A stretch of DNA of 64,000 bases from Nannocystis bainbridge (GCF_028368995.1 NZ_JAQNDL010000004.1:352001-416000), one strand, 5' to 3'. Shown: positions 2,275 to 64,000, counted from the stretch's first letter. Translations and numbers: made by a program. The notes: a model not told the origin generated them from the letters alone.

Positions 2275-2338
2275 GACATGTCCCGAGGAGAATGTCCTGG
2301 GGGGCATGTCCCTGAGGACATGCCCGTGCGGACATGTC
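2275..2338. repeat. 14-bp-phased GACA/TGTC palindromic array (5 cores)
   Basis: Cores GACATGTC, AGAATGTC, GGCATGTC, GACATGCC, GACATGTC start at 2275, 2289, 2303, 2317, 2331. Confidence 0.9.
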
Positions 2339-2340
2339 CC

Positions 2341-2545
2341 TCAGGTCTTGTGGGCCAGGGCGGCGAGCACGGCGTCGGCGCCGAGGCGGAGCAGGAGCTC
2401 GGCGACCCCTCAGGGCTTGTGGGCGAGCGCGGCGAGTACGGCGTCGGCGCGGAGCGGAGCAGGAGCTCGGCGAGCCTCAGGTCTTGTGGGCGAGCGCGGC
2501 GAGCACGGCGTCGGCGCCGAGGCGGAGCAGGAGCTCGGCGACGGC
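2341..2545 (-). repeat. Tandem triplication (67-69 bp unit) of the hemC 3' end including its stop codon
   Basis: TCAGG(T/G)CTTGTGGGC...GCAGGAGCTCGGCGA starts at 2341, 2410 and 2477. Confidence 0.9.
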
Positions 2546-3475
2546 GGTGCCGAGGTCGGCGGCGTCGGCGGGCGGACCGACGCGGGCGGCGGTGAAGCAG
2601 GGGCGGCCGCTCGGGTCGGTGATGACGCCGCGGACGTGCAGGAGCTCGCCCTGCAGCTCGGCGTGGCAGCCCATCGGGACCTGGCAGCCGCCGTCGAGGC
2701 GGGCGAGGAAGGAGCGCTCGGCGGCGGCGACGGTGGCGGCGTGGGCGTCGTTCAGCGGGGCGACGAGGGCGCGCACGCGGTCGTCGTCGGCGCGGCTCTC
2801 GAGCGCGAGGATCCCCTGGCAGGCGGCCGGACAGAACTGTTCGGGGTCGAGGCGAGCGTCGATGCGCTCGCTCAGGCCGAGGCGGACGAGGCCGGCGGTG
2901 GCGAGCAGGATGGCGTCGTAGTCGCCGGCGTCGAGCTTGCGCAGGCGGGTGGGCACGTTGCCGCGCAGCGGGCGGATCTGCAGGCCAGGGTGGAGGCGCA
3001 GGGCCAGGGCGCCGCGGCGCAGGCTGGTGGTCCCGAGCGCGGCACCGGCGGGCAAGGACTGGATCGAGAGGTCGCTCGGGGCCTGTCCTTCGGGACAGAG
3101 AGCGGCGCGCAGGGCAGGGCCGAGGACGAGGGCGTCGCGGGCGTCCTCCCGCGGCGGGGTACAGACGATGGCGAGGCCGGGGTGCAGGCGCCCGGGCAGG
3201 TCCTTCATGCTGTGGACGGCGAGGTCGACTTCACCGGCGGCGAGTCGCTCCTCGATGGCGTTGACGAACAGACCCTTGCCGCCGATCTGGTTGAGCGGGC
3301 GGTCCTGGATCCGGTCGCCCTCGGTGGTGATGTGCACGAGCTCGACGGCGAGGCCGTCGCCCCAGACGGCGCGCAGCCGGTCGCGGATGTGGTGGGCTTG
3401 CCACAGCGCCAGCTCGGAGGCGCGAGTGCCGATCCGCAGCGGACGATCGAGGTCGGGCTTGGTCGAGGCGGTCAT
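2477..3475 (-). CDS. hemC: Porphobilinogen deaminase (hydroxymethylbilane synthase)
   Basis: RIGTRASELALWQA, GGKGLF, AVHSMKDLP, LRGNVPTRL, ERSFLARLDGGCQVP. Confidence 0.97.
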   Translation of the reverse strand: MTASTKPDLDRPLRIGTRASELALWQAHHIRDRLRAVWGDGLAVELVHITTEGDRIQDRPLNQIGGKGLFVNAIEERLAAGEVDLAVHSMKDLPGRLHPGLAIVCTPPREDARDALVLGPALRAALCPEGQAPSDLSIQSLPAGAALGTTSLRRGALALRLHPGLQIRPLRGNVPTRLRKLDAGDYDAILLATAGLVRLGLSERIDARLDPEQFCPAACQGILALESRADDDRVRALVAPLNDAHAATVAAAERSFLARLDGGCQVPMGCHAELQGELLHVRGVITDPSGRPCFTAARVGPPADAADLGTAVAELLLRLGADAVLAALAHKT

Positions 3476-3807
3476 GCCGGGCGGGGATGATAGCGCCTGC
3501 GCTCGCACGGGCGCCACCGGGGTCGGGCGCCCGGCCCCGGGGGCTCCGAGGGCCGGGGTCGGGCGGCGGGTGTCATCGAGGCGAGCAGGGCCGCGCGAAC
3601 GGCGAGCGCGCCGCCCTGGTGGCCGTCGACCTCGCACGCGGGGGATGCCGGCAATCCGTGACGGCGCTCGGGATCGATGAGGGGTCAGGCCTCGTGGCGT
3701 GCGTTGCCTTGGTGCGCAGTCGGTCGCGAGGCATGCTGGCCTCGGAGACCGGAGGCGGGCGGCAAGCAGTGCCCGCTCGGCGCAGGTCCGGCGAGAGGAC
3801 GAGGACG

Positions 3808-4143
3808 ATGATCCGCGTGATGTACTGGTGGAAGGTCGAGCCGGGCCAGGAAGATGCGTTCGCGGCGGCGTGGTCGCAGGTGACGCGGTGGATCCGGGAG
3901 CATAAACCGGGCGCTCGCGGCAGCTTGCTGCTGCGCAGCGCCGAGGACCCGCACGAGTTCGTGGCGATCGCCCGCTGGACCAGCCGCGAGGCGTGGGAGG
4001 CGTCGCCGCAGCTGGATGACGCCGAGATGCAGGTGCATCGGCAGACGATGCGGACGACGGCGGAACGCTCGCGCCCGGCCGTGTTCTTCGAGGAGGTGGC
4101 CGACCTGACGGTCAGCGACGAGGAGCGGGCAGGCGAGGCTTGA
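3808..4143 (+). CDS. Antibiotic biosynthesis monooxygenase (ABM)-like dimeric alpha/beta-barrel protein
   Basis: WKVEPGQEDAFAAAW...PGARGSLLLR...FVAIARWTSREAW pattern; GAGGA RBS upstream. Confidence 0.7.
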   Translation: MIRVMYWWKVEPGQEDAFAAAWSQVTRWIREHKPGARGSLLLRSAEDPHEFVAIARWTSREAWEASPQLDDAEMQVHRQTMRTTAERSRPAVFFEEVADLTVSDEERAGEA

Positions 4144-4199
4144 GGCGTGCCGGCGCTTCGCACGGCGCGGCGGGCACGTGGGAGACGCCTGGCGACAGG

Positions 4200-4263
4200 G
4201 ACATGTCGCTGAGGACATAAACCGAAGGACATGCCCATACGGGCATGTCCTCGAAAACATGTC
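4200..4263. repeat. 14-bp-phased GACA/TGTC array (5 cores)
   Basis: Cores at 4200, 4214, 4228, 4242, 4256 between convergent genes. Confidence 0.9.
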
Positions 4264-4265
4264 CT

Positions 4266-5126
4266 TCAGCGCTTGTCGGCCGGCGGGTCTTCGGGGGCGC
4301 CGCCGAGGCGGAACACGATCTCGCCGCGGATCTGGTCGGTCTCGACCCAGCCGATCGCCCGTGAGTCGCAGCAGGCGCCCTCGTCGCGGTTGTCGGCGAC
4401 GAGCAGGTAGCCGTCGGCGGGCATCTCGTAGGGGCCGCCGTCGGCGGGCACGCCCATGCCGGGCCAGGCGTCGGGGCCGGCGGTGCTGGCGAGGACCTGA
4501 TAGCGGCGATCGCCGATGATCTCGAAGGAGGTCGGGCGCCCGTTGGGCACGCCGGGGCCGTCGCCGGGCTTGTGCGCGAGCGGCTCGCCGTTGACGGCGA
4601 GGCCGAGGGCGCCGCGCGGATCGCCGAAGGTGACGGCGTCGCCGGGGAGGGCGAGGATCCGCGCGACCCGCAGGCTGCGCGGCGGCGGTCGCCCGGCGAC
4701 GCCGCTGCGCCGCTGGACCTTCTCCCACTCGTCGTCGAGGCCGAGCTCCTTGGCGTCGACGACGGCGGTGTTGCGCAGGCGATCGCGGGTGCCGGGCACG
4801 CGCGGACGCGCGTCGGGCAGGGGCCGCTCGCCGGGCAGCTCCTGCACGGGCGAGGGCTCGGGCGGCGGCGGCGGCGGCGTGGGGTCGTAGACGACGAGGT
4901 CGCCGCGGTCGAGGCCCCAGGTGCCGCGCACGAACAGGACGTGATCGCCGCTGCGGAGGTTGGGCGCCATGCCGTCGCCGTGGATCTCGACGACGGTGGC
5001 GAAGCTGCAGCGCAGCATCAAGAGAGCGGCGCCACCGACGAGCACGCCCCAGGCGAGCCGCGTCGGCCAGGTGCGATCCGGCGGCGCGGGGTAGTCGTCA
5101 GGCTCTGGTTCGCGGCGAAACAACAT
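4266..5126 (-). CDS. Signal peptidase I (S26)-like protein, catalytic Ser/Lys apparently substituted
   Basis: One N-terminal TM; box B-like IHGDGMAPNL; box D-like VARILALPGD; box E-like LVADNRD...DSR. Confidence 0.75.
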   Translation of the reverse strand: MLFRREPEPDDYPAPPDRTWPTRLAWGVLVGGAALLMLRCSFATVVEIHGDGMAPNLRSGDHVLFVRGTWGLDRGDLVVYDPTPPPPPPEPSPVQELPGERPLPDARPRVPGTRDRLRNTAVVDAKELGLDDEWEKVQRRSGVAGRPPPRSLRVARILALPGDAVTFGDPRGALGLAVNGEPLAHKPGDGPGVPNGRPTSFEIIGDRRYQVLASTAGPDAWPGMGVPADGGPYEMPADGYLLVADNRDEGACCDSRAIGWVETDQIRGEIVFRLGGAPEDPPADKR

Positions 5127-7782: not shown

Positions 7783-8994
7783 ATGCCACGTTCCCCGACT
7801 CCTCGTGCTAACTTCGGGCCCGTGGCTTATTCCGGGCCTGATCGTCGGGTCGCCGACCGCAGGCAAGCGCCGATCGTCGAAGTCCGGCCGACTTATGCGT
7901 ATGTCGACGCCGGCGCGATGGTCCACAACCTGCGCACCGTGCAGGCGGCCGTCGGTCCGCGCTGCCGCGTGCTCGCGGTGGTCAAGGCCGACGGCTACGG
8001 CCACGGCGCGATCGAGGCGGCCCGCACGTTCGTCGACGCCGGCGCGTGGGGCTGCGCGGTCAGCCTGGTCGAGGAGGGCGTCGAGCTGCGCCAGGCCGAG
8101 ATCCGCGCGCCGGTGCTGGTGCTCGGCGGGGTCCATCCGGGCTCCGAAGACGTGATCGTGCACCGCTCGCTGACGCCGGTGGTGTGGGCCCGCGAGCACC
8201 TGCAGCTGCTGTCCGCCGCGGTCCGTCGCAGCGGGGCGCCGCCGCTGCCGATCCACCTGAAGATCGACACGGGCATGTCGCGGCTCGGCGCGCTGCCCGG
8301 CCAGCTGCCGGAGTTCCTCGACTGGCTCGAGGGCGAGGACGGGCAGCACGTGCGGCTCGAAGGCGTGATGACCCACTTCGCCTGCGCCGACGAGCCGGAC
8401 GACGTGACGAGCCCGCGCCAGCTCGAGTCGTTCCGCGACAGCCTGGCGGCGCTGGCCAGCCGCGGGTTCCACCCGCCGATCCGCCACGTGTGCAACAGCG
8501 CGGGGCTGGTCCGCCTGCCGCACGCGCACTTCGACATGGTGCGCCCGGGCGTGGCGATCTACGGGGCGGCGTCGAGCCGCGAGGTCGAGCTGCCGGGGTT
8601 GAAGATGGCGATGAGCGTGCACTCGCGGATCCTCGGCATCCGCGAGCTGCCGGCCGGCGCGCGGGTGTCGTACGGGCACCGCATGGAGCTGACGCGGCCG
8701 TCGCGGCTCGGCATCGTCCCGGTCGGCTACGCCGACGGCTACCCGCGGCGCATGAGCGGGCAGGCGCAGGTGCTGGTCCGCGGGCACCGCTGTCGGGTGG
8801 TCGGCAACATCACGATGGACGTGTCGATGATCGACGTGACCGACCTGCCCGACGCCCGCGAGGGCGAGCGCGTGACGCTGCTCGGGGCCCAGGGGCGCGA
8901 CCGCATCGACGCCTACGAGCTGGCGCGTTGGGCTGATGTCATCCCGTACGAGATCCTGTGCGGGATCTCGAAGCGGGTGCCGCGGCGGGGGTAG
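7783..8994 (+). CDS. alr: Alanine racemase (start may be the GTG at 7822)
   Basis: AVVKADGYGHG PLP-Lys motif, HLKIDTGMSRLG, MTHFACAD, VPVGYADG, GNITMD, IPYEILCGI. Confidence 0.96.
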   Translation: MPRSPTPRANFGPVAYSGPDRRVADRRQAPIVEVRPTYAYVDAGAMVHNLRTVQAAVGPRCRVLAVVKADGYGHGAIEAARTFVDAGAWGCAVSLVEEGVELRQAEIRAPVLVLGGVHPGSEDVIVHRSLTPVVWAREHLQLLSAAVRRSGAPPLPIHLKIDTGMSRLGALPGQLPEFLDWLEGEDGQHVRLEGVMTHFACADEPDDVTSPRQLESFRDSLAALASRGFHPPIRHVCNSAGLVRLPHAHFDMVRPGVAIYGAASSREVELPGLKMAMSVHSRILGIRELPAGARVSYGHRMELTRPSRLGIVPVGYADGYPRRMSGQAQVLVRGHRCRVVGNITMDVSMIDVTDLPDAREGERVTLLGAQGRDRIDAYELARWADVIPYEILCGISKRVPRRG

Positions 8995-9005
8995 CGGAGC
9001 TTCGG

Positions 9006-9069
9006 GACATGTCGCGCAGGACATGTCCGTTCGGACAATGACGAAGGGACATGCTCTTTCGAGCATGTC
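9006..9069. repeat. 14-bp-phased GACA/TGTC array (5 cores)
   Basis: Cores at 9006, 9020, 9034, 9048, 9062. Confidence 0.9.
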
Positions 9070-9095
9070 CCTTGAGATAGCGACCAGCCCCGGGC

Positions 9096-10148
9096 TCAGT
9101 TGCCGGCGGGCGGGGGCGCGGAGGTGGTCGGCGGCTGGCTGCTGGCCGGGGGCTCGCCGCCGGCGGGCGGGGGCGCTCCGGCCTCGTTGCAGTCCTCGGA
9201 GCCGACGTAGTCCGGGTGGCATGGGTCGCTGATGTCCTGCACCTTGGGCGCCGCGGCGCCGCCGGTCTGGCTGACCGGCTTCGACCAGTTCACCTCGGTC
9301 TTGGCGAAGGTATTGGTGTTGCCGGCGTCGAAGATCTGCTCCTCGTTGACGTAGCTGTAGAGGTAGCGCTGGTCGGTGGCGAACAGGGCGGTGATCGTCG
9401 ACTGCTTCTTGACCTCGTGGCTGCCGCTCGAGGTGGTGGTGATCTCGGTCTCGTCGGTGTCGGTGATGAGCCGCGCGACGGTGATCGGCGGCTCGCCGGT
9501 CTGATAGAAGCCGTCGACCTTGCTGGTGACGGTGCCCTCGGAGTAGCGGCCGAGCTTGCCCTTGCGGCCGCGCTTCTTGTCGTCCTTCCAGGTGTCGCCG
9601 GCCTTGAGCGGGCGCGCGGGGACGGTGAGGAAGGCGGTCTCGAGGGCGTCCAGGGCCTGCTGGAGGACGACGCGGAGCTCGGCCGAGAGGTCCTCGGGGA
9701 GCTCGGGCATGTGGAGGATCTTGCCGGTGTCGTCGACGCTGAAGTCGACCTCGAGGCCCTGCAGCTGCTGGCCGGCGGTCCGGTTGAACTCGGCGACGCT
9801 GATCGGGAAGCTCGGCGGGAGGCTCCACTTGATCTGGACGGCGCTGAAGCGGGCAGTGACGGCGGTGCCGCCGTGGGCCTCGTCGGCGCCGCGCACGGTC
9901 AGCGTGAGATCGAAGCTGAAGCTCTGGGAGGAGCTGGTGGCGCTGGTGGCGGCGCGGATGGTGGCGCTGCGGCGCACGCTGCCCTGGTAGACCTGGCCCG
10001 CGGTGAGGTCGTAGCGCAGCGTGATGCCCTCGGCCGGCGCCTCGACCTTGGTGAGGCCGGGGCCGGTCTTGCACCCGGGCAGCGACGGAGCGGCACAGAG
10101 GACGAAGGCGAGGAGCCAGCGAGGGGCGCGAACCATGGCCCGGAACAT
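9096..10148 (-). CDS. Hypothetical exported protein / lipoprotein
   Basis: Signal peptide ending LPGC, beta-rich body, Pro-rich tail; normal codon usage. Confidence 0.7.
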   Translation of the reverse strand: MFRAMVRAPRWLLAFVLCAAPSLPGCKTGPGLTKVEAPAEGITLRYDLTAGQVYQGSVRRSATIRAATSATSSSQSFSFDLTLTVRGADEAHGGTAVTARFSAVQIKWSLPPSFPISVAEFNRTAGQQLQGLEVDFSVDDTGKILHMPELPEDLSAELRVVLQQALDALETAFLTVPARPLKAGDTWKDDKKRGRKGKLGRYSEGTVTSKVDGFYQTGEPPITVARLITDTDETEITTTSSGSHEVKKQSTITALFATDQRYLYSYVNEEQIFDAGNTNTFAKTEVNWSKPVSQTGGAAAPKVQDISDPCHPDYVGSEDCNEAGAPPPAGGEPPASSQPPTTSAPPPAGN

Positions 10149-18202: not shown

Positions 18203-18274
18203 TGACCCTGTCGGGACTTGAACCCGAGCTTTCGGCGTGAGAGGCCAACGTCCTAACCGCTAGACTACAGGGCC
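18203..18274 (-). tRNA. tRNA-Glu (CTC)
   Basis: Reverse complement GGCCCTGTAGTCTAGCGGTTAGGAC...anticodon loop CT-CTC-AC...GGGTTCAAGTCCCGACAGGGTCA folds as a cloverleaf; CCA not encoded. Confidence 0.92.
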
Positions 18275-18295
18275 AGAAACTCTCGGACGTGGTAG

Positions 18296-18366
18296 TTCGG
18301 GGACAGGGATTCGAACCCCGATAGGCGGTACCAGAAACCGCAGTCCTACCATTAGACGATCCCCGA
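18296..18366 (-). tRNA. tRNA-Gln (CTG)
   Basis: Reverse complement TCGGGGATCGTCTAATGGTAGGACT-GCGGT-TTCTGGT-ACCGC...GGTTCGAATCCCTGTCCCCGAA folds as a cloverleaf. Confidence 0.92.
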
Positions 18367-20372: not shown

Positions 20373-20519
20373 GAGCCGGGCGCCGAGCGGCTGTCGTAGC
20401 TGCGCGAGAGCCCGCGCAGGGCCGCTCCGGGTGGCTTCTGCGACGGACCGCCGGGTGCGGACCCGGCCAGTCTTGGCGATCGGCAGCTGAAGGGGGCGCG
20501 CAGCGTAGCGTCCCTTCGG

Positions 20520-20584
20520 GACATGTCTAGGAGAGCATGTCCTTACGCACCTGTCGCTACGGGCATGTCCGAAAGGGAACGTTC
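20520..20584. repeat. 14-bp-phased GACA/TGTC array (4-5 cores) overlapping a stop codon
   Basis: Cores at 20520, 20534, 20548, 20562; weaker GAACGTTC at 20577. Confidence 0.8.
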
Positions 20585-32539: not shown

Positions 32540-32581
32540 GGCCGGGACTATACACCGCCTGATATCATCCGCCGCATCAAA

Positions 32582-35624: not shown

Positions 35625-40867
<5,243 letters not shown>

Positions 40868-40981: not shown

Positions 40982-41047
40982 CAATGAGACCGTGGTCGCA
41001 GACCCACGGTGCTCGCCGTGCGTCGCAGCCGCCTGGAGCTCCGACCC

Positions 41048-49219: not shown

Positions 49220-49233
49220 GCCGCGGGCGCGGG

Positions 49234-49303
49234 TGTCCGCGAGGGCATGTCCACAAGGGCATGTCCGAAGGGGCATGTCCGCGAGAGCATGTCCTTGGGG
49301 GCA
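49234..49303. repeat. 14-bp-phased array, 5 complete TGTC-N6-RGCA units
   Basis: TGTC at 49234, 49248, 49262, 49276, 49290. Confidence 0.92.
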
Positions 49304-49370
49304 CCCGGCCGTGGCCCGGCTCACGGCGGCGGCGCTGCCGCGGACGCGGGAAACCGGGCATCGTCGCGGC

Positions 49371-50162
49371 ATGAGCATCTTTCGCGCGGACGCGCTGCAG
49401 GGACTGGTCGCCCTCGTCACCGGCGGGGGTTCGGGCATCGGGGCGGCGATCGCGGTGACGCTGGCGGAGCACGGGGCCCGCGTGGCGGTGTGCGGGCGGA
49501 CGCAGGCCAAGCTCGAGGCGACGGTCGAAGCGATCGCGGCGGCCGGCGGCGAGGCGCTGGCGGTCGCGGCCGACGTGCGCAGGCCGGAGCAGGTCGAGGC
49601 GGTGATGCAGGCGATCGAGGCCCGCTGGGGCCGGCTCGACGTGCTGGTCAATTCGGCCGCGGGCAACTTCCTGTGCCCGGCCGCGAGCCTGTCGCCGAAC
49701 GGCTTCGGCACCGTGGTCGACATCGATCTCAAGGGCACGTTCAACGCCTGCAAGGCCGCGCTGCCGCTGCTGTCGCGGGCGGGCGGGACGATCCTCAACA
49801 TCTCGGCGACGCTGCACTACGGCGGCACGCCGCTGCAGATCCACGCGGCCAGCGCGAAGGCGGGGATCGACGCGCTGACGCGCACGCTGGCGGTCGAGTG
49901 GGGCGCGGCGGGGATCCGCGTCAACGCGATCGCGCCGGGGCCGATCGACAACACCGAGGGGATCACCCGGCTGTTGCCGCCCGAGCTGCGCGCCAGGGCG
50001 GAGCGGGCGATCCCGCTGCGGCGGTTCGGCCAGCCGCGCGAGATCGCCGACGCTGCGGTGTTCCTGGCCTCGTCCGCCAGCGCCTACACGACCGGCGCGA
50101 CGCTGGTGATCGACGGCGGTCACTGGCTGACCGGGATGGGCCTGATGAGCCTCGCCGAGTGA
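49371..50162 (+). CDS. SDR oxidoreductase, 2,4-dienoyl-CoA reductase-like
   Basis: TGGGSGIG, NSAAGNFLCP...LSPNGF..VVDIDL.GTF, HAASAKAG, NAIAPGPI. Confidence 0.88.
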   Translation: MSIFRADALQGLVALVTGGGSGIGAAIAVTLAEHGARVAVCGRTQAKLEATVEAIAAAGGEALAVAADVRRPEQVEAVMQAIEARWGRLDVLVNSAAGNFLCPAASLSPNGFGTVVDIDLKGTFNACKAALPLLSRAGGTILNISATLHYGGTPLQIHAASAKAGIDALTRTLAVEWGAAGIRVNAIAPGPIDNTEGITRLLPPELRARAERAIPLRRFGQPREIADAAVFLASSASAYTTGATLVIDGGHWLTGMGLMSLAE

Positions 50163-50229
50163 CGGGGCGCGGTCGCGCGGCGGTTCGCCGGTCAGACGCC
50201 CGCGGTTCTGCGTTATCGTGGCGGCTCGC

Positions 50230-52320: not shown

Positions 52321-52328
52321 AGACGGCG

Positions 52329-52402
52329 GGCATGCTCGATCGAGCATGTCCGATGGAACATGGCAAATCGGACATGTCGTGAGCGACATGTCCGAAGACG
52401 CA
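52329..52402. repeat. 14-bp-phased array (5-6 cores)
   Basis: Cores at 52329, 52343, 52357, 52371, 52385, (52399). Confidence 0.9.
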
Positions 52403-52408
52403 GCCGGG

Positions 52409-52900
52409 TCAGGCGCGCGCGAGCTCGGCGGTGGCGGCGACGATGCGGTCCAGCGAGCGGGCGAGCACGTGGGCGTCGTCGACGACCTCGAGGCGGACGG
52501 CGGGGTGGGCGGCCGCCCAGGCCTCGACGGCGGCGACGGGGATGAGCTCGTCGTCGCGGCCGTGGATGGCGATCGTCGGGCAGGGCGGCGCGAGGTCGAG
52601 GGCGTCGGCCGGCGGCTCGTGCACGATCAGGGCCGGGGCGGCGAGCACGAGGCCGTGCACGCGACCGCCGGCGCGATGGTGGAGGATCGCGCCGCACAGG
52701 GCGGTGAGGCCGCCGTAGCTCGAGCCGACCAGGACGCAGCCGTCGTGGGCGGCGAGCTCGGGCAGCAGCGCGGCGACGCGCGCGGCGAGGTTCATGCCGG
52801 TGAAGTCGGGGGCCACGAGGTCGAGACCGGCGGCCCGCAGCGCCTGCGCCTTGCGGCCCTGCGGGCTGCCCTCGAGACCGTGGCAGAAGACGACCTTCAT
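52409..52900 (-). CDS. Small alpha/beta hydrolase (YqiA-like esterase)
   Basis: HGLEGSP, GSSYGG nucleophile elbow, HGRDDELIP, DDAH. Confidence 0.85.
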   Translation of the reverse strand: MKVVFCHGLEGSPQGRKAQALRAAGLDLVAPDFTGMNLAARVAALLPELAAHDGCVLVGSSYGGLTALCGAILHHRAGGRVHGLVLAAPALIVHEPPADALDLAPPCPTIAIHGRDDELIPVAAVEAWAAAHPAVRLEVVDDAHVLARSLDRIVAATAELARA

Positions 52901-52942
52901 CGCCGGACAGGATACGCGGCGGGCCGGCGCTCGTGGTAGGCC

Positions 52943-54070
52943 ATGGCCATGCCGGTGTTCGCGCTGACGGACGAGCTGGTGTTCCCGGACCCGGGGCAGG
53001 CCGAGCCGGACGGGCTGCTGGCGCTCGGCGGCGACTTGCGGCCCGAGCGGGTGCTGCTGGCGTACGCGCACGGGATCTTCCCGTGGAACAGCGAGGACGA
53101 GCCGCTGCTGTGGTGGTCGCCGGCGCCGCGGGCGGTGCTGGAACCGGGGGCGATCGCGGTGCCGCGCTCGCTGGCCAAGGCGATCCGTCGCCGGCCTTAC
53201 CGCATCACCCTCGACCTGGCCTTCGAGGCAGTCATCGCCGCGTGCGCCGAGACGCCGCGGCCGGGCCAGGACCGCACGTGGATCACGCCGGCGATCCGGG
53301 CGGCGTTCACCGATCTTCACCGCCGCGGATTGGCCCACAGCGTCGAGGCGTGGGACGGCGAGGAGCTGGTCGGCGGGCTGTACGGGCTGGCGCTGGGGTC
53401 GGTGTTCTGCGGCGAGAGCATGTTCGCCCGCGCCGACGATGCCTCGAAGATCGCGTTCGTGGCCCTGGCCGAGCAGCTGCGGCGGTGGGAATTCTCGATG
53501 ATCGATTGCCAGGTCGAGTCGGACCACCTGCGTCGCTTCGGGGCGACGCCGCTGGAGCGCGTGGCGTTCATGCGCCGGCTGGCGGCCGGGGTGGCGCAGC
53601 CGTGGCGGGTCGGGCTGTGGACGCTCGACGAGGAGCTGGCCGGCCGCGCCGAGGGCGGGCCGCCGGCGCACACCGCCGGGCCGCCGGTGATGTGGAGAAT
53701 GTCCCAAGAGACAGGTGATGCGTCCGCCGGCGAGGGGCGGAGCCGGCGCAAGCGGCGAGGCCGCGGCGACTGCGAGCTGGCGCGAGGGACAGGTGCTTCG
53801 ACGGGGCGCGCGGCCGAGGCCGCGAGTGAGATGTCTCGAGGGACAGGTGGATCGGCGGGGTCCGGGGCAGAGGCTGCGCCCGCGAGTGAGGCGTCCCGCG
53901 GGAAGAAGGACGCGCCCGAGCCCGACCTGCCGCGCGGGACAGATCCAGGGGTGGTCCGCGGGGCCGCGGAGGGCACGATGGGCGCAGAGACCGAGGACAC
54001 GAACATGTCTCCGGGGACAGGTGGCGAGGGCGCCGCTGCTTCGGGCTCCTCGGGCCGGCGGGAGCCCTGA
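52943..54070 (+). CDS. aat: Leucyl/phenylalanyl-tRNA--protein transferase with a long low-complexity C-terminal extension
   Basis: GLLALGGDL, AYAHGIFPW, WWSP.PR, AHSVEAW, LVGGLYG, FCGESMF, ASKIAF, IDCQ. Confidence 0.93.
   Translation: MAMPVFALTDELVFPDPGQAEPDGLLALGGDLRPERVLLAYAHGIFPWNSEDEPLLWWSPAPRAVLEPGAIAVPRSLAKAIRRRPYRITLDLAFEAVIAACAETPRPGQDRTWITPAIRAAFTDLHRRGLAHSVEAWDGEELVGGLYGLALGSVFCGESMFARADDASKIAFVALAEQLRRWEFSMIDCQVESDHLRRFGATPLERVAFMRRLAAGVAQPWRVGLWTLDEELAGRAEGGPPAHTAGPPVMWRMSQETGDASAGEGRSRRKRRGRGDCELARGTGASTGRAAEAASEMSRGTGGSAGSGAEAAPASEASRGKKDAPEPDLPRGTDPGVVRGAAEGTMGAETEDTNMSPGTGGEGAAASGSSGRREP
53696..54022. repeat. Five dispersed TG(T/G/C)C-N6-GACAG sites in the aat tail
   Basis: GACA at 53710, 53788, 53842, 53938, 54016, all in the same reading frame. 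Confidence 0.8.
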
Positions 54071-54183
54071 ACCGCTGCGGGGCCGCGGGCCCGGGGAGCG
54101 ACGGCGCCGCGACGTCACGGGGCCATCGGCTGCGACGGGCGTGACGCGCGGGAAGGCGCGAGGTATCCTTCGCGCCCTCTCGC

Positions 54184-57567
<3,384 letters not shown>

Positions 57568-57594
57568 ACTGATCGCGGGCGCGGCACCCCGACG

Positions 57595-57626
57595 CGCATG
57601 AACGAGAGAACATGTCTCGAGAGACA
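57595..57626. repeat. Short 14-bp-phased array
   Basis: CGCATGAA 57595, AACATGTC 57609, GACAG 57623. Confidence 0.65.
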
Positions 57627-57740
57627 GACATTATGCGCTGACTGCGCGTGTGGTCGATGTCTTCCAGGCGCGCGAGCGGCCGTACGCCCGGTGCGAGGTC
57701 GAGTGACGGAGGCGTGGGGCTGGAGTAGATTTCTCCCCGA

Positions 57741-58826
57741 ATGTCCTCGCCCGCATGGTTCATTCGCTCCGTCTCGGTGCAGAAGTTCGGGTGCCTCAAG
57801 GACGTGAACGCAGCGTTGACGCCGCTGCACGCGTTCATCGGGCCGAACGATAGCGGCAAGAGCACGCTGCTGCGCGCGCTGCGGACGGCGATGCACCTGG
57901 TTCGAAGGTCATTTATTCGCGCGCCGAATGACGAAATTCAGCCCTTTGATCCGGGACCACTCTGTAGCGGGACGGCCATGCAGCTCGCCTTCGGGCCAGA
58001 TCGTGCAAAGAGCCATTTCAACTTGAAGATCCTCGATGAGGGTAACTTCGCGGAGTCCGGTGGGTCGAAGCCGTTGCTGGCGTCTCAGCGAAGCTGGATC
58101 GGGCCGCGGTCGACCAAACGAGGTTCAACGCTAACGTGGCCTCCGGAGATTTTGCCGCTGCTCGACTCGGGCGCTCGGCTCGTGCACCTAAACCCGAGCT
58201 CGCTGCGTGAGCCGAGCGAGCTCATCCCTGAGGGCGGTGGAAACGAGCTCATCGACGAGTACGGGCGGGGGCTGCCGGCCATTTACGACGCAATCCTCAA
58301 TCGCGGGGATGATGCATTCTTGCGCATGGTCGAGGGCGTTCGTCGTTTGTTTCCGACGATCAAGGCAGTCCGCCTCAAGGTGATGTCGAAGAGCACTAAG
58401 GCGCTGGAGGTGGAGCTTGTTTCGGGGGAGCGAGTGCCCGCGGCATTCCTCAGCGAGGGGCTCCTGTTCTATCTCGCCTTCGCGGCGTTGCAGCACCTCG
58501 ATCCGGTCGCGCTGTTGCTGATCGAGGAGCCCGAGAATGGGCTGCACCCGGCGCGAATCGCCGACGTCATGCGGATCCTGCGGGAGATCTCGAGTACGAC
58601 GCAGGTGGTGCTGACGACCCATAGTCCGCTCGTGATCAACGAGATGCAGGGCGACGAGGTCAGCGTGGTCACGCGCGATCGAGACAAGGGCACGATGGTC
58701 CGTCGCCTCGACTCGACCCCGAACTTCATCGAGCGCTCGAAGGTCTACGCCCTCGGAGAGCTGTGGCTGAGCTACGCGAACGGCGACGACGAGGGGCCGC
58801 TGCTCACCGCGCAGGTCGTGACATGA
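57741..58826 (+). CDS. ABC-type (AAA_21/AAA_15-like) ATPase, putative defence component
   Basis: Walker A GPNDSGKST, signature LSEG, Walker B LLIEEPENGLHP, H-loop TTHSP; more AT-rich codons than flanking genes. Confidence 0.88.
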   Translation: MSSPAWFIRSVSVQKFGCLKDVNAALTPLHAFIGPNDSGKSTLLRALRTAMHLVRRSFIRAPNDEIQPFDPGPLCSGTAMQLAFGPDRAKSHFNLKILDEGNFAESGGSKPLLASQRSWIGPRSTKRGSTLTWPPEILPLLDSGARLVHLNPSSLREPSELIPEGGGNELIDEYGRGLPAIYDAILNRGDDAFLRMVEGVRRLFPTIKAVRLKVMSKSTKALEVELVSGERVPAAFLSEGLLFYLAFAALQHLDPVALLLIEEPENGLHPARIADVMRILREISSTTQVVLTTHSPLVINEMQGDEVSVVTRDRDKGTMVRRLDSTPNFIERSKVYALGELWLSYANGDDEGPLLTAQVVT

Positions 58827-59437
58827 AGCGCGTCGTCCTCGGCGGGGAAGGGCCGAACGAGCTCGGCGGCTGGTGCAACCTGCCCCCGTATCGCGCAGAA
58901 ACACCGGTTCCGGGGGTGCTCGAGGCGCTGTTGCGGCACGTCCGTCCTGACGGATGGATCGTCATCGACGCCGTAGTTTGGAGCTCGATCCGGAAGTATC
59001 GCGCCGGAGGTCACGCGGACGCCGAGGAGCGCAACGTGCTCGGTCTGGTCTTGAAGGCGCGAGAGCGCGGCGCCGACATCGTCGCCTTCGCGCGCGACTG
59101 CGACGGCGACGGAGCGCAGCACCGCCGCCGAATCGCCTCGATCGACGTCGGGCTCGCGCGCGCGCGCGAAGAGTTTCCGCAGGGTCCAGCCGTGATTGGT
59201 GGGAGCGCCGTGCGCATGCTCGAGGCTTGGGTCCTCGCTATCGGCGGCGAGCGACGGACCGAAGAGATGGGTCGAGAGGGACTTGAGACGGGATTTCAGC
59301 GGTTCCAGATCCCGCTCAAGAAGACCCCTGCGCTGGTCGACTTTGTTCAGAAGGCGGACCTCGGCAGGATTCCCGCCGATGCCGTGTCGCTGACGAAATG
59401 GTTGGCGCGAGCGCGTGAGGTCCTCGCTCCGTCTTGA
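58823..59437 (+). CDS. TOPRIM-like (DUF4276/RloB-type) putative nuclease partner
   Basis: N-terminal strand then EGPNE, FARDCDGD (DxD), MLEAWVL; ATGA overlap with the ATPase. Confidence 0.65.
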   Translation: MKRVVLGGEGPNELGGWCNLPPYRAETPVPGVLEALLRHVRPDGWIVIDAVVWSSIRKYRAGGHADAEERNVLGLVLKARERGADIVAFARDCDGDGAQHRRRIASIDVGLARAREEFPQGPAVIGGSAVRMLEAWVLAIGGERRTEEMGREGLETGFQRFQIPLKKTPALVDFVQKADLGRIPADAVSLTKWLARAREVLAPS

Positions 59438-59455
59438 GCACGCCTCGATCCGCTG

Positions 59456-59625
59456 GGCATGTCCGAACGGTCAGCAGCGATGAACGCTCGGGACATGTCG
59501 CTCGCGGTCTAGACCCCACTCGTCCGGCGCGAATGGCTGGCACTCGGGACATGTCCTGTCGGTCAGACTGGTTGACCGATCTCTGGCGCTAGCGAGCGGC
59601 TGGCACTCGGGACATGTCCCTCGCG
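59456..59625. repeat. Cluster of GACATGTC sites including a 22-bp direct repeat
   Basis: Cores at 59456, 59492, 59548, 59611; GGCTGGCACTCGGGACATGTCC at 59535 and 59598. Confidence 0.8.
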
Positions 59626-59626
59626 G

Positions 59627-59974
59627 CTAGTCCCACTCGCACACGCGGTGCTTGCACTTCTGGCCGGCGGCGCAGTCGGCGGCGGTGCTGCAGGCGTAGA
59701 AGCAGCGCTTGTGCTCGCACAGCAGGCCGGCGGGGCACTCGGCGTCGGCCTCGCACTCGAAGGTGCACATGCCGCCGTCGCACTCCTTCTTGTCGCAGCA
59801 GTGGCCGGAGCTGCACTCGTCGTCGTCGTCGCAGAAGGCCCCGATGCCGCCGGGGCAGTTGGGGTCGTAGCGGCAGTCGCCTCCAGGGAGGCCCGGGGGT
59901 CCGCAGGTGACGCTCAGCAGGGCGCCGATGGAGAGGCCGAGGAGGGTGTGAAGCCAGCCGGGCGATCGGTGCAT
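59627..59974 (-). CDS. Small Cys-rich exported protein
   Basis: Hydrophobic signal then many Cys in C-x4/5-C repeats (CDDDDEC, CEADAEC, CSTAADC). Confidence 0.7.
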   Translation of the reverse strand: MHRSPGWLHTLLGLSIGALLSVTCGPPGLPGGDCRYDPNCPGGIGAFCDDDDECSSGHCCDKKECDGGMCTFECEADAECPAGLLCEHKRCFYACSTAADCAAGQKCKHRVCEWD

Positions 59975-60012
59975 GGAGCGAGGATCGACGGGGACGCGGA
60001 GGACGTCAACGG

Positions 60013-60567
60013 TCAGGGCTGCGGTCCGGAAGCCCCGGCCGTGAGCAGGGCCGCGTCGAGCCGGGCCTCGAGATCGGCGCCGGGCAGGGCCCACACGCCG
60101 ATGAGGCCGGCCGCGCGGGCGGCGTCGATGTTGCCGCGCTGATCGTCGATGACGACGACGTCCGAGGCGAGGCCGCGGAGGTGCGCCCAGAAGCGCGGGT
60201 CGGGCTTGGCGACGCCGAGTTCGCCGCTGCAGAGCCAGTGATCGACGAGGCCGGAGTCGCCGATCTGGTCACGCACGAGGGGCAGCCAGGCGCGGGCGAA
60301 GTTGGTGGCGAGGGCGATCCGGTGGCCCCGCGCGCGCAGGCGCGAGACGAGCGCGAGCCGGTCTGTCCGCAGGCGCAGGCAGGCGCGGTAGGCGGCGGCG
60401 GTCGCCGGGTCCCAGAAGTCGTCTTCGTCGATCGCGCCGACCCGCAGGCGGTGCCAGCGGTCGCGGTCGGGGGCGCCGTCGAGCTCCCGCCACGACGGCT
60501 CGGCGAGCACGCCGATCAGGTCGAAGGCGACGAGCGGGAGGGCGGACGAGGAGGTCGGTTCGGACAT
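60013..60567 (-). CDS. HAD-superfamily phosphatase (YihX-like)
   Basis: Motif I VAFDLIGVL, ALATN, SGELGVAKPDPRF, VIDDQRGNIDAARAAG. Confidence 0.85.
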   Translation of the reverse strand: MSEPTSSSALPLVAFDLIGVLAEPSWRELDGAPDRDRWHRLRVGAIDEDDFWDPATAAAYRACLRLRTDRLALVSRLRARGHRIALATNFARAWLPLVRDQIGDSGLVDHWLCSGELGVAKPDPRFWAHLRGLASDVVVIDDQRGNIDAARAAGLIGVWALPGADLEARLDAALLTAGASGPQP

Positions 60568-60678
60568 GGTTAAAAAAGGGTCGGGCTTCAGGACGTTCAC
60601 GTCTAGCGAGCCGCTCGCGGGACGGAGGTCGACGAGGCCCGGGCCGTCGGCGGGGACCGTAGCTCGTCGCGCCGCGAG

Positions 60679-60784
60679 GAGATGTCCGAACGCACATGCT
60701 CGTATGAACATGCGCATATGGACATGTACAAACAGACATGCGCTTTTGGACCTGCGCGTTCGGACATGTCCTTCACAGCAGGCC
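60679..60784. repeat. Longest 14-bp-phased array (8 cores)
   Basis: Cores at 60679, 60693, 60707, 60721, 60735, 60749, 60763, 60777. Confidence 0.9.
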
Positions 60785-61780
60785 GTAGCGGACCAGGTGG
60801 TCGGGGGAGCGCTGCCACAGGTGGCCGACCACGGCGGTGGCGGCCTCGTCGAAGCGCTCGGCGCCGGCGCGCAGGCGGCGGTACACCGGGGAGGCGTCCC
60901 GGACGTCGTAGGCGAGGAGGTCGAGGGCGCGGCGGGTGTCGGGCTCGGCGAGGGCGGCGAGGAAGGCGTCGTAGGCGGTGACGAGGCCGGCGCACAGGGG
61001 GAGGCCGTCCAGCGGGCGCAGGGCGTCGGCGATCCGCAGCAGCGGCGGGCGGGGCAGCTGCTCGGCGAGCCAGCCGTCGCGGGCCTCGTCGGGCAGCAGC
61101 GCGGCGCGGCAGAACACGGCGAGGTTGGCGAGGTGCCACAGCTTGCGCGAGTGACGGAGCTTGAAGTAGCGGATGGCCCAGTGCTTGCCGGCGTTCTCGA
61201 CCTTGAACCGGTAGTCGACGCAGATCGTGCGGTAGTAGCGGTGGAGGTCGTTGCTCAGCGAGGTGAGGTAGCGGCCGCGGGTGATGGCGCCGGCCGTGTA
61301 GGCGCCGAACACCTGCTCGACGATGGCGGCGGCGTCGCCGGCGTTGGCCAGCCAGGCGCCCTCGGTCAGCAGGAGGGCGCGGTAGGTCAGGTGATCGTTG
61401 CTGTCGTCGCGGCCGCCGATGTCGCCGAGCAGGTCGTCGAGGACGACGGCGCTGTGGAAGGTCTTGTCGGGGACGTCGAGGCCGCGGGCGCGCAGGGCGG
61501 CGGCCAGGGCCTCGCGCGCGCCGTCGGCGTCGACGGGGGCGATGGCGCCGCGGCGGTAGACGACGGCCAGGTCGAGGTCGCTGAGGGCGCTCGACTCGTG
61601 GCGGCCGAGCGAGCCGAGCGCGAAGGCGGCGCAGCCTGGCGGGACGGCGCCGACGAGGGCGCGTCGCAGCTCGGCCAGGCGGGCGTGCGAGCCGGCGGCG
61701 GCGGCGAGCACGTGGGACGCGTCGGCTGCGGTCAACCCGAGCTCGGCGAGCAGCGGCGCGTAGTCGACCGGTCCGCGCAT
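60773..61780 (-). CDS. Pol-beta superfamily nucleotidyltransferase, HalB (Hailong)-like
   Basis: GSLGRHE...SDLDL, IGGRDDSN..LTYR.LLL.E, NDLHRYYRTICVDY..K, W.IR..KL..SRKL, C-terminal RYGLL. Confidence 0.75.
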   Translation of the reverse strand: MRGPVDYAPLLAELGLTAADASHVLAAAAGSHARLAELRRALVGAVPPGCAAFALGSLGRHESSALSDLDLAVVYRRGAIAPVDADGAREALAAALRARGLDVPDKTFHSAVVLDDLLGDIGGRDDSNDHLTYRALLLTEGAWLANAGDAAAIVEQVFGAYTAGAITRGRYLTSLSNDLHRYYRTICVDYRFKVENAGKHWAIRYFKLRHSRKLWHLANLAVFCRAALLPDEARDGWLAEQLPRPPLLRIADALRPLDGLPLCAGLVTAYDAFLAALAEPDTRRALDLLAYDVRDASPVYRRLRAGAERFDEAATAVVGHLWQRSPDHLVRYGLL

Positions 61781-61781
61781 G

Positions 61782-62879
61782 TCAGATCTCCGGGCCCTCG
61801 GCGCCGGGTATGACTGTCCATCGGGACATGTCCTCATGGACATGGTCGTCGAGCGTGATCGGCAGGGTCAGCTGGGCCGCGGCGTGGCGCGGGCTGACGA
61901 ACGCGAGCTGACGGCTGTGACGGTAGCGGCGCGACCACTGCGGGCGAGCGAGGCCGTGCGGACCGGGGGCGACGGTGGCGTCGACGAAGTAGCGCTTGTG
62001 CACGCGCGGGACCACGTCGTCGCCGCCGGGCGGGGGCACGCGGGTGCTCTGGAAGCGGTCGTCTTGCCCTTCGGACAGGCCGCTGCGGCGCGCGTGAGTC
62101 TCGACCAGGCCGCGCAGGGCGGCGTCGTCGAACTCGGCGAAGCGGGCGAAGATCCGGTGGTCGAACGCGTCGGCGACCGCGCGCGACAGCTCGGCCTCGC
62201 ACACGATGTTGGAGGGCAGGTTGATGACCTCGCTGTAGATCCGGTCCTTGAGGTTCCAGAAGCGGTCGATGACGGGGAGCGCGTCGGGGTCGATGAGCAG
62301 CTCGCGGCCGCGGCGGACGAACACGGCCCGCGGCAGGCGCACGCCGGCGCGGCCGAAGGTGCGGGCGGTGCGGACGATGCCGTCGAGGGTGTCGAGGTTG
62401 ATCGGGGCGAGCAGCAGGGCCGAGAGGTCGAGCGCGAGGCCGTCGCCGCGGCCGCCGATGATGGCCCACACGCGCTCGGGGTCGAGGTCGACGCTCTGCA
62501 GCACGGGGCGCAGCGAGAGGGCCTCCGGGATCGCGCCGTTGCCGAGGACGATCCACTCGCTGACGCCGTGGTGGGCGACGCCGAGGGCCCGCTCGAAGCC
62601 CGGCTCGGCCGCGTGCGACAGCGGGAAGTGGCCGATGTCGTGCAGCAGGCAGGCGGCGACGAAGTGGCGCAGATCGGCCTCGGCGAGGCCCAGCGCGGCG
62701 CCGAAGCGGTGACCGAGGGTGGCGACGCCGAGCGAGTGGTCGAGGCGGGTCGCGGGGTCGTGGCTGCGCGGGTGCCAGTCGAGGGTGCCGAGGAAGCTGA
62801 CCCGACCGAGGCGCTGCACCCACGACGAGTCGAGCAGCGGAGCGCCGAGCAGACGGACGAGGGCCGGGGGGGGAGGCAC
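61782..62879 (-). CDS. HD-domain phosphohydrolase (dNTP triphosphohydrolase-like)
   Basis: VQRLGRVSFLG, RLDHSLGV, LLHDIGHFPLSH, INLDTLD; GTG start inferred. Confidence 0.82.
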   Translation of the reverse strand: MPPPPALVRLLGAPLLDSSWVQRLGRVSFLGTLDWHPRSHDPATRLDHSLGVATLGHRFGAALGLAEADLRHFVAACLLHDIGHFPLSHAAEPGFERALGVAHHGVSEWIVLGNGAIPEALSLRPVLQSVDLDPERVWAIIGGRGDGLALDLSALLLAPINLDTLDGIVRTARTFGRAGVRLPRAVFVRRGRELLIDPDALPVIDRFWNLKDRIYSEVINLPSNIVCEAELSRAVADAFDHRIFARFAEFDDAALRGLVETHARRSGLSEGQDDRFQSTRVPPPGGDDVVPRVHKRYFVDATVAPGPHGLARPQWSRRYRHSRQLAFVSPRHAAAQLTLPITLDDHVHEDMSRWTVIPGAEGPEI

Positions 62880-63050
62880 GGCCCTCGGACGCTGGCACAG
62901 GCCCGCGGTGCTGCCAAGGGGGGACGCCGCGGCGCTCGCCGCAGCGTCACGCAGACAGGCCGTGAGGTGCGGGTCGGATCGCCGCGTGTCGGCCTGCGTC
63001 GGGCCCGCTTGCAAACCGGCGCGCGCTCTGCGAAGCCATGCGGCGACGGC

Positions 63051-63554
63051 ATGACGAAGAAGTCCGCGAAGATCCGCTGTTGGCTGATGAAGAGCGAGCC
63101 GGACGTGTTCTCGATCGACGATCTGCAGCGGCTCGGCAAGACCGCCTGGGAGGGCGTGCGCAACTACACCGCCCGCAACTCGATGCGCGACGACATGAAG
63201 ATCGGCGACCTGGTGATCTTCTACCACTCGAGCGTCGAGCCCGCCGGCGCGGTCGGGCTCGCTCGCGTGTGCAGCGCGCCGTACCCCGATCCGACCCAGT
63301 TCGACGAGAAGAGCGAGTACCACGATCCCAAGGCGACCCGCGAGGCGCCGCGGTGGATCCTCGTCGACGTCGAGTTCGTCGAGAAGTGGCCGGCGATGGT
63401 GACGCTGCAGGCGCTCAAGGCCGACAAGAAGCTGAAGGACATGCTGGTGGTGCAGAAGGGTCAGCGGCTGAGCGTGCAGGCGGTCGAGCCGCGCCACTTC
63501 GTGCACGTGCTGCAGCTGGCCGGCAGCGCGCAGGGCGAGGCGGTGTCGGCGTGA
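63051..63554 (+). CDS. EVE domain protein
   Basis: WLMKSEPDVFSIDDL, WEGVRNYTARN, FYHS, YPDPTQFD, QRLSVQ. Confidence 0.93.
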   Translation: MTKKSAKIRCWLMKSEPDVFSIDDLQRLGKTAWEGVRNYTARNSMRDDMKIGDLVIFYHSSVEPAGAVGLARVCSAPYPDPTQFDEKSEYHDPKATREAPRWILVDVEFVEKWPAMVTLQALKADKKLKDMLVVQKGQRLSVQAVEPRHFVHVLQLAGSAQGEAVSA

Positions 63555-64000
63555 GCGCGGCCCGCAACATCGAGCTCAAGGCCCGCTGCCCCGACCTGGC
63601 GGCGGCCCGCGCTGCCGCCGAGCGCCACGGGGCCCGCTTCGTCCGCGTCGAGCACCAGCGCGACACGTTCTTCCACGCCCGCACCGGTCGCCTCAAGCTG
63701 CGCGAACGGACATGGCGCGAGGGACAGGACGCAGAGGACAGGTCGGACGCGGAGCTGATCCCGTACGAGCGCTCGGACACCGGCGGGGCGCGGGAGAGCC
63801 GCTACCACGTGGTGCCGGTGATCGAGCCTGCCGCCCTGATCGCGGGGCTGGCGGCGGCGCTCGGGATCCGCGGGGCGGTGGTGAAGCGGCGCGAGCTGTG
63901 GATGTGGCACAACGTGCGGATCCACCTCGACGCGGTCGAGGGGCTGGGGGCGTTCGTCGAGTTCGAGGCGGTGATGCTGCCCGGCGAGACGGACGCCGAG
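63551..64000 (+). CDS. CYTH / class IV adenylate cyclase family protein (partial, runs off the window)
   Basis: RNIELKAR, QRDTFF..GRLKLRE, VVKRREL, RIHLDAVEGLGAFVEFE; not in the ORF track because there is no stop in the window. Confidence 0.88.
   Translation, partial: MSAARNIELKARCPDLAAARAAAERHGARFVRVEHQRDTFFHARTGRLKLRERTWREGQDAEDRSDAELIPYERSDTGGARESRYHVVPVIEPAALIAGLAAALGIRGAVVKRRELWMWHNVRIHLDAVEGLGAFVEFEAVMLPGETDAE

Follow-up and report, generated by a model that had tools for sequence, protein, structure and literature searches.

What holds a short palindrome in exact 14-bp register along a bacterial chromosome? The question is raised by 64,000 nucleotides of Nannocystis bainbridge DNA (GCF_028368995.1, NZ_JAQNDL010000004.1:352001-416000; hereafter the window), which lie on contig C4 of an 11.05-Mb genome of 72% G+C in five contigs. 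A sequence-only reading of the window had noticed about 20 clusters of GACA|TGTC-like cores repeated every 14 bp and had proposed a genome-wide site system. We chained, at 14 bp, all cores matching GGACATGTCC at no fewer than seven of ten positions. Every cluster listed in that reading was present where it had been placed, although the count by chaining is 26 (14 arrays of at least three units plus 12 two-core pairs) rather than about 20. Tandem Repeats Finder reported 14-bp arrays in the window at 2274, 38125, 49234, 52337, 60694, and 60735. The pattern TGTC-N6-GACA occurred 21 times in the window, compared to a mean of 0.46 and a maximum of 2 in 100 dinucleotide-preserving shuffles. Across the whole genome, chaining gave 3940 chains, of which 1547 are arrays spanning 3-12 units, so the system is genome-wide, as had been proposed.

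The period is sharp. Pairs of CATG words lay 14 bp apart 3736 times in the genome, compared to 72 times at 13 bp and 262 times at 15 bp, with further peaks at 28 (2073), 42 (1586), 56 (751), and 70 bp (383) and none elsewhere. The autocorrelation peaks that had been set as a check at 14, 28, and 42 bp were thus found genome-wide, and two more beyond them. For GACATGTC, the corresponding counts were 223 at 14 bp, 1 at 13 bp, and 0 at 15 bp, and chains of at least three cores numbered 1198 at 14 bp against 0-10 at control periods of 12, 13, 15, 16, 17, and 21 bp. The 42-bp CATG peak stood somewhat above a smooth decay; two of the largest arrays are visible 42-bp tandem duplications, which may contribute to this excess. 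The decamer GGACATGTCC occurred 956 times in the genome, while five control decamers occurred 0-26 times. The array feature is real, strongly non-random, and under selection.

The motif matrix read G G R C A T G Y C C and then four unconstrained positions with some A/T enrichment; CATG stood at 94-97%, GG and CC at 70-78%, and R as A in 58% and G in 30% of cases. Half-sites were held at a rigid distance: TGTCC-N4-GGACA occurred 1987 times, compared to 16 for N3 and 5 for N5 (about 13 expected by chance). As a unit, TGYCC-N4-GGRCA is an inverted repeat of 14 bp, and successive units abut head to tail without a gap, giving GGRCA|TGYCC at each junction; as the head-to-head sequence GGACA|TGTCC, the junction occurs 956 times in the genome. 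At the 1602 array ends, the outer TG(Y)CC half was kept (T 51%, G 69%), whereas the C and A needed to make a full core were near background. In addition, 493 isolated units without flanking cores were found genome-wide, with the consensus RSC-TGTCC-N4-GGACA-GSY, and these carry mostly CTG...CAG rather than CATG (C 76% at position -1). The kept outer half-sites and the isolated units therefore identify the unit as centered on the spacer, which, together with the N4 rigidity, bears out what the sequence-only reading had taken the true unit to be. That reading had described N6 spacers that differ between units. They do differ, but conservation covers a 10-bp palindrome, GGRCATGYCC, which leaves just 4 bp free to vary.

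Adjacent 4-nt spacers were identical in 129 of 3455 pairs (3.7%, compared to 1.2% expected), a value above expectation but low, so slippage occurs but is minor. Among 1890 distinct three-spacer strings, only 8 were common to more than one array, all 8 near contig ends. Slippage or tandem duplication does not explain the arrays, as had been argued from the spacers. Some arrays have a CAGG/CCTG junction variant, and a few are plain tandem duplications. The variant array at C3:1054304-1054411 has the core GGACAGGYCC, which is non-palindromic, and this array is therefore directional; C3:1085840-1085947 is a plain 8-copy tandem repeat with identical spacers, and so a product of slippage.

Where the arrays lie relative to genes had been missed by the sequence-only reading: they sit at stop codons and in convergent intergenic regions. 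Genes were called with a home-made codon-bias caller (8139 genes, 83-86% coding). By context, 573 of the 1547 arrays were convergent, 480 tandem, and 61 divergent, and 433 lay inside called genes. At least two in-phase cores were present in 723 of 1286 convergent intergenic regions (56%), 862 of 3508 tandem regions (25%), and 205 of 1457 divergent regions (14%); for at least three cores, the proportions were 40%, 12%, and 4%, respectively. Array starts fell mostly from -3 to +20 nt of a stop codon, and 58% of 1626 array-to-stop distances were at most 30 nt.

The arrays of the window, none of which is assigned a strand, illustrate this placement. Eight of ten array-flanking gene calls in the window had a Pfam match; the matched neighbors include glutamyl-tRNA reductase, porphobilinogen deaminase, alanine racemase, gamma-glutamyltranspeptidase, a Na+/H+ exchanger, and an enoyl reductase-like SDR.

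2274-2339: 5-unit array in the convergent region between glutamyl-tRNA reductase (910-2235, plus strand) and porphobilinogen deaminase (2477-3475, minus strand); orthologous arrays in four of four congeners.
4199-4264: 5-unit array ending 1 nt before the signal peptidase stop (4266-5126, minus strand), convergent with 3808-4143 (plus strand); an orthologous array-bearing segment was recovered in three of four congeners, and the anchor failed in the fourth.
9005-9070: 5-unit array with a degenerate middle core, 11 nt after the alanine racemase stop (7918-8994, plus strand), convergent with 9096-10148 (minus strand).
20519-20570: 4-unit array between gamma-glutamyltranspeptidase (18759-20372, plus strand) and gene 20543-22021 (minus strand), overlapping the last codons and stop of the latter.
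29643-29694: 4-unit array of the CCTG/CAGG-junction variant, within a weakly supported open reading frame (29536-29874, minus strand) with no Pfam match.
31675-31726: 4-unit array in the convergent region between 30612-31310 (plus strand) and 31796-32947 (minus strand), with single units nearby at 31578-31591 and 31624-31637.
36411-36448: 3-unit array inside the long open reading frame 35636-40867 (plus strand).
36772-36809: a second, weaker array in the same reading frame (35636-40867, plus strand).
38097-38176: 6-unit array, also inside the open frame 35636-40867 (plus strand), adjoining 54-bp tandem repeats.
47386-47437: 4-unit array in the SMC gene (45587-49219, plus strand), in the variable hinge loop, translated as ...SQDMSDAPGAYGPGLEDMLQ...
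49243-49294: four full cores with half-sites at both ends, about 15-24 nt after the SMC stop, in tandem context; with the half-sites, five inverted-repeat units (49234-49300).
52328-52393: 5-unit array starting 8 nt after the Na+/H+ exchanger stop (50260-52320, plus strand), convergent with 52409-52900 (minus strand).
60678-60771: 7-unit array ending 1 nt before the stop of 60773-61780 (minus strand), in minus-strand tandem with 60013-60600 (minus strand).
63708-63745: weak 3-unit array, near the end coordinate given in the sequence-only reading.
3084-3097: isolated unit TGTCC-TTCG-GGACA.
11435, 25253, 25289, 25311, 27433, 53700, 53832, 54006, 57613, 61815, and 61829: other isolated or paired units.

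Other repeats adjoin several of these arrays. Next to the 2274 array, a 67-bp unit is repeated 3.0 times (2338-2542, 90% matches) and duplicates the end of porphobilinogen deaminase, a minus-strand gene, from its last codons through the stop. In the convergent intergenic region, immediately upstream of the 31675 array, lies a 35-37-bp tandem repeat of about five copies (31375-31550). Within the 1743-codon frame 35636-40867, the third-position G+C (GC3) signal collapses over about 300 bp (37860-38160), a stretch that holds the 54-bp tandem repeats (37909-38053) and the 6-unit array; the reading frame nevertheless remains open and resumes. Either this stretch is translated as a low-complexity linker, or it marks a junction that was wrongly assembled or wrongly called.

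Comparison with congeners separated what is kept from what drifts. Four congeners are syntenic with the whole window, with aligned DNA about 92% identical and four-fold degenerate sites 82% identical, and whole-window alignments break at the array-bearing intergenic regions. Array orthologues were recovered by anchoring on flanking sequence. Their position and phase were kept, while spacers were scrambled (36-50% identity per position) and the intergenic DNA around them was unalignable. CATG was identical in five of five genomes at 4/4 cores of the 9005 array, 4/4 of the 49243 array, and 3/3 of the 47386 array. The claim that core and phase are kept independently of the spacer thus held both within the genome and across congeners. 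Unit number varied: orthologues of the 49243 array had 4-7 cores, one of them with a fresh one-unit duplication, and the 60678 array has 7 units here compared to 0-2 in the four congeners. The array in the SMC hinge occupied the same place in distant congeners despite a differing peptide and was absent from three of three sister-genus loci examined.

These arrays are without recent copy-paste spread. Copy-paste mobility, including that of a miniature inverted-repeat transposable element (MITE) or another transposon-derived repeat, was rejected on the few shared spacer strings and the lack of a parent element with the same ends among the repeats examined. Long repeats are few in the genome (82 self-matches of at least 500 bp at 95% identity or higher; 41 if each was reported in both directions), and among the repeats of 600-4000 bp examined, none had TGTCC...GGACA termini and no matching insertion sequence was found.

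Array length, in contrast to array density in convergent regions, which was equal throughout the genome, depends on chromosome position. Arrays of at least 8 units reached 16 per Mb in the 1.0-2.0-Mb stretch of C3, compared to 0.7-2.8 per Mb elsewhere, so that 16 of 28 fell within this 9% of the genome. For arrays of at least 6 units, the same region had 60 per Mb, compared to 42 on the rest of C3 and 14-24 on the other four contigs. It contains a plus-to-minus GC-skew switch, presumably the replication terminus; dnaA lies at C1:4.353 Mb, where GC skew turns from minus to plus. The position dependence counts for a protein acting at the DNA level.

Among the genomes searched, the array system is restricted to Nannocystis. 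The two-core pattern was found in all ten congeners (1-147 matches, compared to 223 in this genome), in one of 14 other genomes of the family (2 matches), and in none of 16 of the same class, while a reversed-pattern control gave 0 everywhere. Four in-phase CATGs occurred 869 times in this genome but never in 17 genomes from other genera of the family; across the class, four of 133 genomes had them at 1-6 places, mostly plain tandem repeats with identical or nearly identical spacers. A wide scan for three exact in-phase cores, with one genome per species, returned 40 loci: 22 in Nannocystis or other Nannocystaceae, 9 in Rhodobacteraceae, 6 in Actinobacteria, and 3 simple repeats. Public records of N. 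punicea, N. pusilla, N. exedens, and N. radixulma, as well as Nannocystis metagenome-assembled genomes, also contain arrays. No analogous system with another motif was seen in small 60-kb samples of four sister genera, and 2.9 million viral contigs gave 0 matches to two array patterns. A search of sequencing runs with sampled words returned metagenome contigs only, with at most 0.22 of the words and mostly graded as probably DNA. The arrays were undescribed in the full-text literature searched, a corpus that lies outside subscription journals and supplementary files.

The sequence-only reading held that the sites match no known system. This stands for membership but not for resemblance, as repetitive extragenic palindromes (REP), their bacterial interspersed mosaic elements (BIMEs), and PadR-type operators are close analogues. 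Like the REP, BIME, and REPIN elements of enterobacteria and pseudomonads, the Nannocystis arrays are short imperfect palindromes in hundreds to thousands of copies, arrayed after stop codons and between convergent genes, and specific to a genus or species. REP and BIME elements can act both on RNA, by 3'-end protection and attenuation, and on DNA, through binding of gyrase, IHF, and Pol I, with E. coli BIMEs working at both levels. The Nannocystis arrays differ in having no REP-associated tyrosine transposase (RAYT), a 14-bp unit only, a strict zero-gap phase, copies that share stems rather than loops, no recent near-identical copies, and about 300 members within reading frames. The conserved GTAG/CTAC head that adjoins the hairpin of REP elements was absent from the motif matrices of units and array ends. 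The arrays work most like REP and BIME elements but fail the tests that define them. A RAYT/REPIN mechanism was rejected, with 0 matches to PF01797 in this genome in a search whose control matched six reference genomes.

The likeness to PadR operators, also missed by the sequence-only reading, lies in geometry. In PMC3506622, the canonical PadR operator is ATGT/ACAT with an 8-10-nt spacer; the unit, as ATGTC-N6-GACAT, has the geometry TGT-N8-ACA and fits ATGT-N8-ACAT of that description. At five actinobacterial loci, three GACATGTC cores spaced at exactly 14 bp lie between a gene for a PadR-family regulator and a divergent gene. These cores are TGACATGTCA-like, with overlapping inverted repeats sharing ACATGT, and three of three regulators tested matched PF03551 and PF10400; the divergent gene looks carotenoid-oxygenase-like, judged by its N-terminal sequence alone. 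These three cores probably form the two overlapping dyads of a conserved PadR operator, so winged helix-turn-helix (wHTH) dimers probably use this overlapping architecture. The actinobacterial sites, however, lie in promoters, with exactly three cores at one or a few places per genome, whereas the Nannocystis sites lie at gene 3' ends in 1547 arrays, only 61 of them in divergent regions. PadR itself was rejected as the cognate protein, with 0 matches to PF03551 in the genome, a best tblastn E value of 0.26, and a distribution across genomes that does not follow that of the arrays.

Other systems are more distant. The sites of matS/MatP number a few tens and are confined to the terminus, whereas Nannocystis arrays occur on all five contigs at 100-217 per Mb, and no PF06303 match to MatP was found in the genome. 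HIP1 of cyanobacteria and the DNA uptake sequences (DUS) and uptake signal sequences (USS) share with the arrays an over-represented, lineage-specific short word that is both genic and intergenic and conserved at orthologous positions, and DUS pairs are often at gene ends. None of them is known to form phased head-to-tail arrays with a fixed spacer, however, and DUS and USS lack palindromic symmetry. In operators of the MetJ, Arc/omega, and TubR types, a short symmetric or repeated unit likewise recurs at fixed period with adjacent repressor dimers in contact, but at few sites per genome, in promoters or partition loci, and with periods of 7-12 bp. LtmA of M. smegmatis was rejected: it binds GGACA-NN-TGTCC, which is another geometry. 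The decamer GGACATGTCC is also, letter for letter, an optimal p53 half-site (RRRCATGYYY), and when it was sought in full-text literature, 47 papers contained it, with p53 work making up the top-ranked titles among the matches listed. This is a coincidence, as bacteria have no p53 and the bacterial unit is centered on the spacer rather than on CATG.

We favor, with a probability of about 0.4, REP/BIME-like 3'-end elements that are held in place by a genus-specific, trans-acting dimeric protein that reads TGYCC-N4-GGRCA and polymerizes at gene ends. We infer the existence of a protein reader, its action on double-stranded DNA, and the function of the arrays. Each 14-bp unit would be the site of one symmetric dimer, in the TGT-N8-ACA arrangement that PadR and other winged-helix dimers use. 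Since units abut without a gap, neighboring dimers would share the CA|TG junction and could polymerize over 3-12 units. The resulting nucleoprotein cap at or after stop codons, above all between convergent genes, might stop or insulate transcription, or manage supercoils, between neighboring units, while the array transcript could fold into stable hairpins in either direction and so protect the mRNA 3' end. A wider version of this proposal is doubtful: that the putative Nannocystis-specific protein polymerizes on (TGYCC-N4-GGRCA)n at the stops of >1000 protein genes, with caps that terminate or insulate in both directions and stand in for intrinsic terminators at the mRNA genes of a genome with 72% G+C. 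As array length is graded towards the replication terminus, the same polymer would, in that version, also join in chromosome organization.

The strongest rival places the function in RNA, and we regard it as possible, though on the unlikely side. On this account, the transcribed array is a set of stacked hairpins just behind the terminating ribosome that might end transcription without a U-tract, block 3'-to-5' exonucleases, or both, acting in both directions between convergent genes, and a hairpin-specific RNA-binding protein would account for the fixed sequence and 4-nt loop. The sequence-only reading had missed that the arrays would form very stable RNA hairpins: predicted folds reached -41 to -52 kcal/mol per about 80-100 nt, with z of -5 to -7 on both strands tested (-51.3 kcal/mol and z of -6.2 for the 49243 array). 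Placement at stop codons, in the order convergent, tandem, divergent, also fits an RNA element. Of the two parts of an intrinsic (Rho-independent) terminator, the arrays have the G+C-rich hairpin, with predicted stems of 10-12 bp, but not the U/T-run. No T-run followed them, with T at 11-23% over the 14 positions outside the 1602 array ends, and a terminator scan of window positions 44001-64000 gave 5 sites, compared to 4.4 expected, none at a gene end or array. Rfam 15 at gathering score matched two tRNAs only in the window (18203-18366, minus strand) and left the arrays unmatched. Covariation across the spacer was weak (odds ratio 1.43, z 4.4), C·A mismatches filled 690 of 3018 cells at the variable pair (23%), and 433 of 1562 inner stems were fully pairable (28%). 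Pairing is thus weakly selected, which counts for a protein that reads a fixed geometry. Moreover, a hairpin needs neither an invariant CATG nor a rigid N4 loop; the loops are strand-symmetric, without enrichment or strand bias of GNRA or UUCG tetraloops. The geometry, with its preference for N4 over N3 and N5, 14-bp spacing, and phase kept despite substitution-saturated spacers, is too rigid for hairpin stability alone. The same core in all 1547 independent arrays calls for a common reader, and the length gradient towards the skew switch has no RNA-level explanation.

Several observations nevertheless weigh against a DNA-binding protein, and some of them favor RNA. Covariation extends to the outer pair of the 10-bp stem, where the odds ratio was 1.37 and direct-repeat controls gave 1.16 and 1.06. 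In tandem contexts, the sense strand had more cells of G·U type than of A·C type (728 to 542) and fully pairable inner stems numbered 433 against 332; the flanks of tandem-context arrays had no G/C skew (0.492), so flank composition is not the cause. Genuine reading frames (GC3 >0.85 on both flanks) contain about 300 arrays, most of them with 3-4 units, including the one in the SMC gene, where a strong roadblock should be harmful; in-frame hairpins would be harmless, as ribosomes melt them. Arrays avoid tRNA genes, only 5 of 102 of which had a unit within 120 nt downstream (97 had none), and four of these five downstream regions are a G+C-rich hairpin and then a T-rich stretch directly after the tRNA, consistent with tRNA genes using canonical terminators instead. 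The polymerizing protein that had been postulated gained no candidate: none was evident among the 20 of about 50 window genes scanned against Pfam, in line with the sequence-only reading, and the genome had no match to PadR, MatP, or the RAYT/Y1 transposase. PadR occurs in four of ten Nannocystis genomes and in four of five same-family sister genera that lack arrays. The gene caller was crude, with the Pfam check of its calls limited to the 20 window genes, and the genome is an estimated 90% complete, so the gene for the cognate protein could be among those missing. The DNA-level and RNA-level readings are not mutually exclusive.

We consider it improbable that the arrays are a frozen relic, in which a lost mobile or templated process of REPIN type seeded units in the Nannocystis ancestor and no dedicated reader exists today. 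Palindromic cores pair with several neighbors, so single changes would be selected against, and the restriction to one genus among the genomes searched, the location where sequence change is tolerated (3' intergenic regions and variable loops of proteins, the SMC hinge among them), the occasional slippage copies, and the lack of a remaining RAYT are all in keeping with such a history. But few spacer strings are shared, no insertion sequence among the repeats of 600-4000 bp has the expected ends, and at three loci all five genomes keep the CATG cores although the intervening spacers have diverged. Despite saturation of the spacers, loop indels of 1 nt hardly occur (21 for N3 and N5 together, compared to 1987 for N4), a combination that needs ongoing selection on geometry. 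Less probable still is a self-recognition or epigenetic signature, either an uptake sequence of DUS/USS type or a HIP1-like palindrome tied to a CATG- or RCATGY-specific methyltransferase. The core does contain RCATGY, and the motif is highly over-represented in this genus only among the genomes searched (956 against 0-26 for GGACATGTCC), present in coding and non-coding DNA, and, as an array pattern, absent from the viral contigs. Isolated units, however, are mostly without CATG, and therefore CATG methylation cannot be what all units share; DUS and USS are single, asymmetric words that are not known to have a fixed dimer geometry or phasing.

If a protein does read the arrays, they would constitute a dedicated, sequence-specific marking of the 3' ends of >1000 transcription units and a new route to termination or insulation for genomes so rich in G+C that they have few U-tract terminators. 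The arrays could serve as ready-made bidirectional insulators in the engineering of myxobacterial natural-product producers. Should they instead be relics, they would record a REP-like expansion that lacked a RAYT. They also amount to a natural experiment: purifying selection acts on cores and phase, whereas the spacers are free to drift, which makes selection on geometry separable from selection on sequence. They mark the genus and are a likely source of assembly and PCR trouble.

Some further observations are minor. Small predicted proteins are encoded in the window at 24735-25214, 41009-41479, and 58823-59437 (159, 156, and 204 aa), none of them matched by a Pfam family at an E value of 0.01 or below. 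A preprint lists histone homologues for Nannocystis and for the myxobacterial genera Plesiocystis and Enhygromyxa. Among Rhodobacteraceae, genomes of Roseovarius and Sulfitobacter each have several loci where three such cores recur at 14 bp with A/T spacers between them, and twice this site adjoins the 5' end of a gene whose N-terminal residues read as enolase. Finally, C1:364585-365100 is an intergenic 80-bp tandem repeat with a 40-bp sub-period, which disposes of a CRISPR-like reading of this locus. Each copy carries a CCTGTCC-GCAA-GGACAGG hairpin, making it a second type of repeat, not 14-bp phased, built on the same half-sites.

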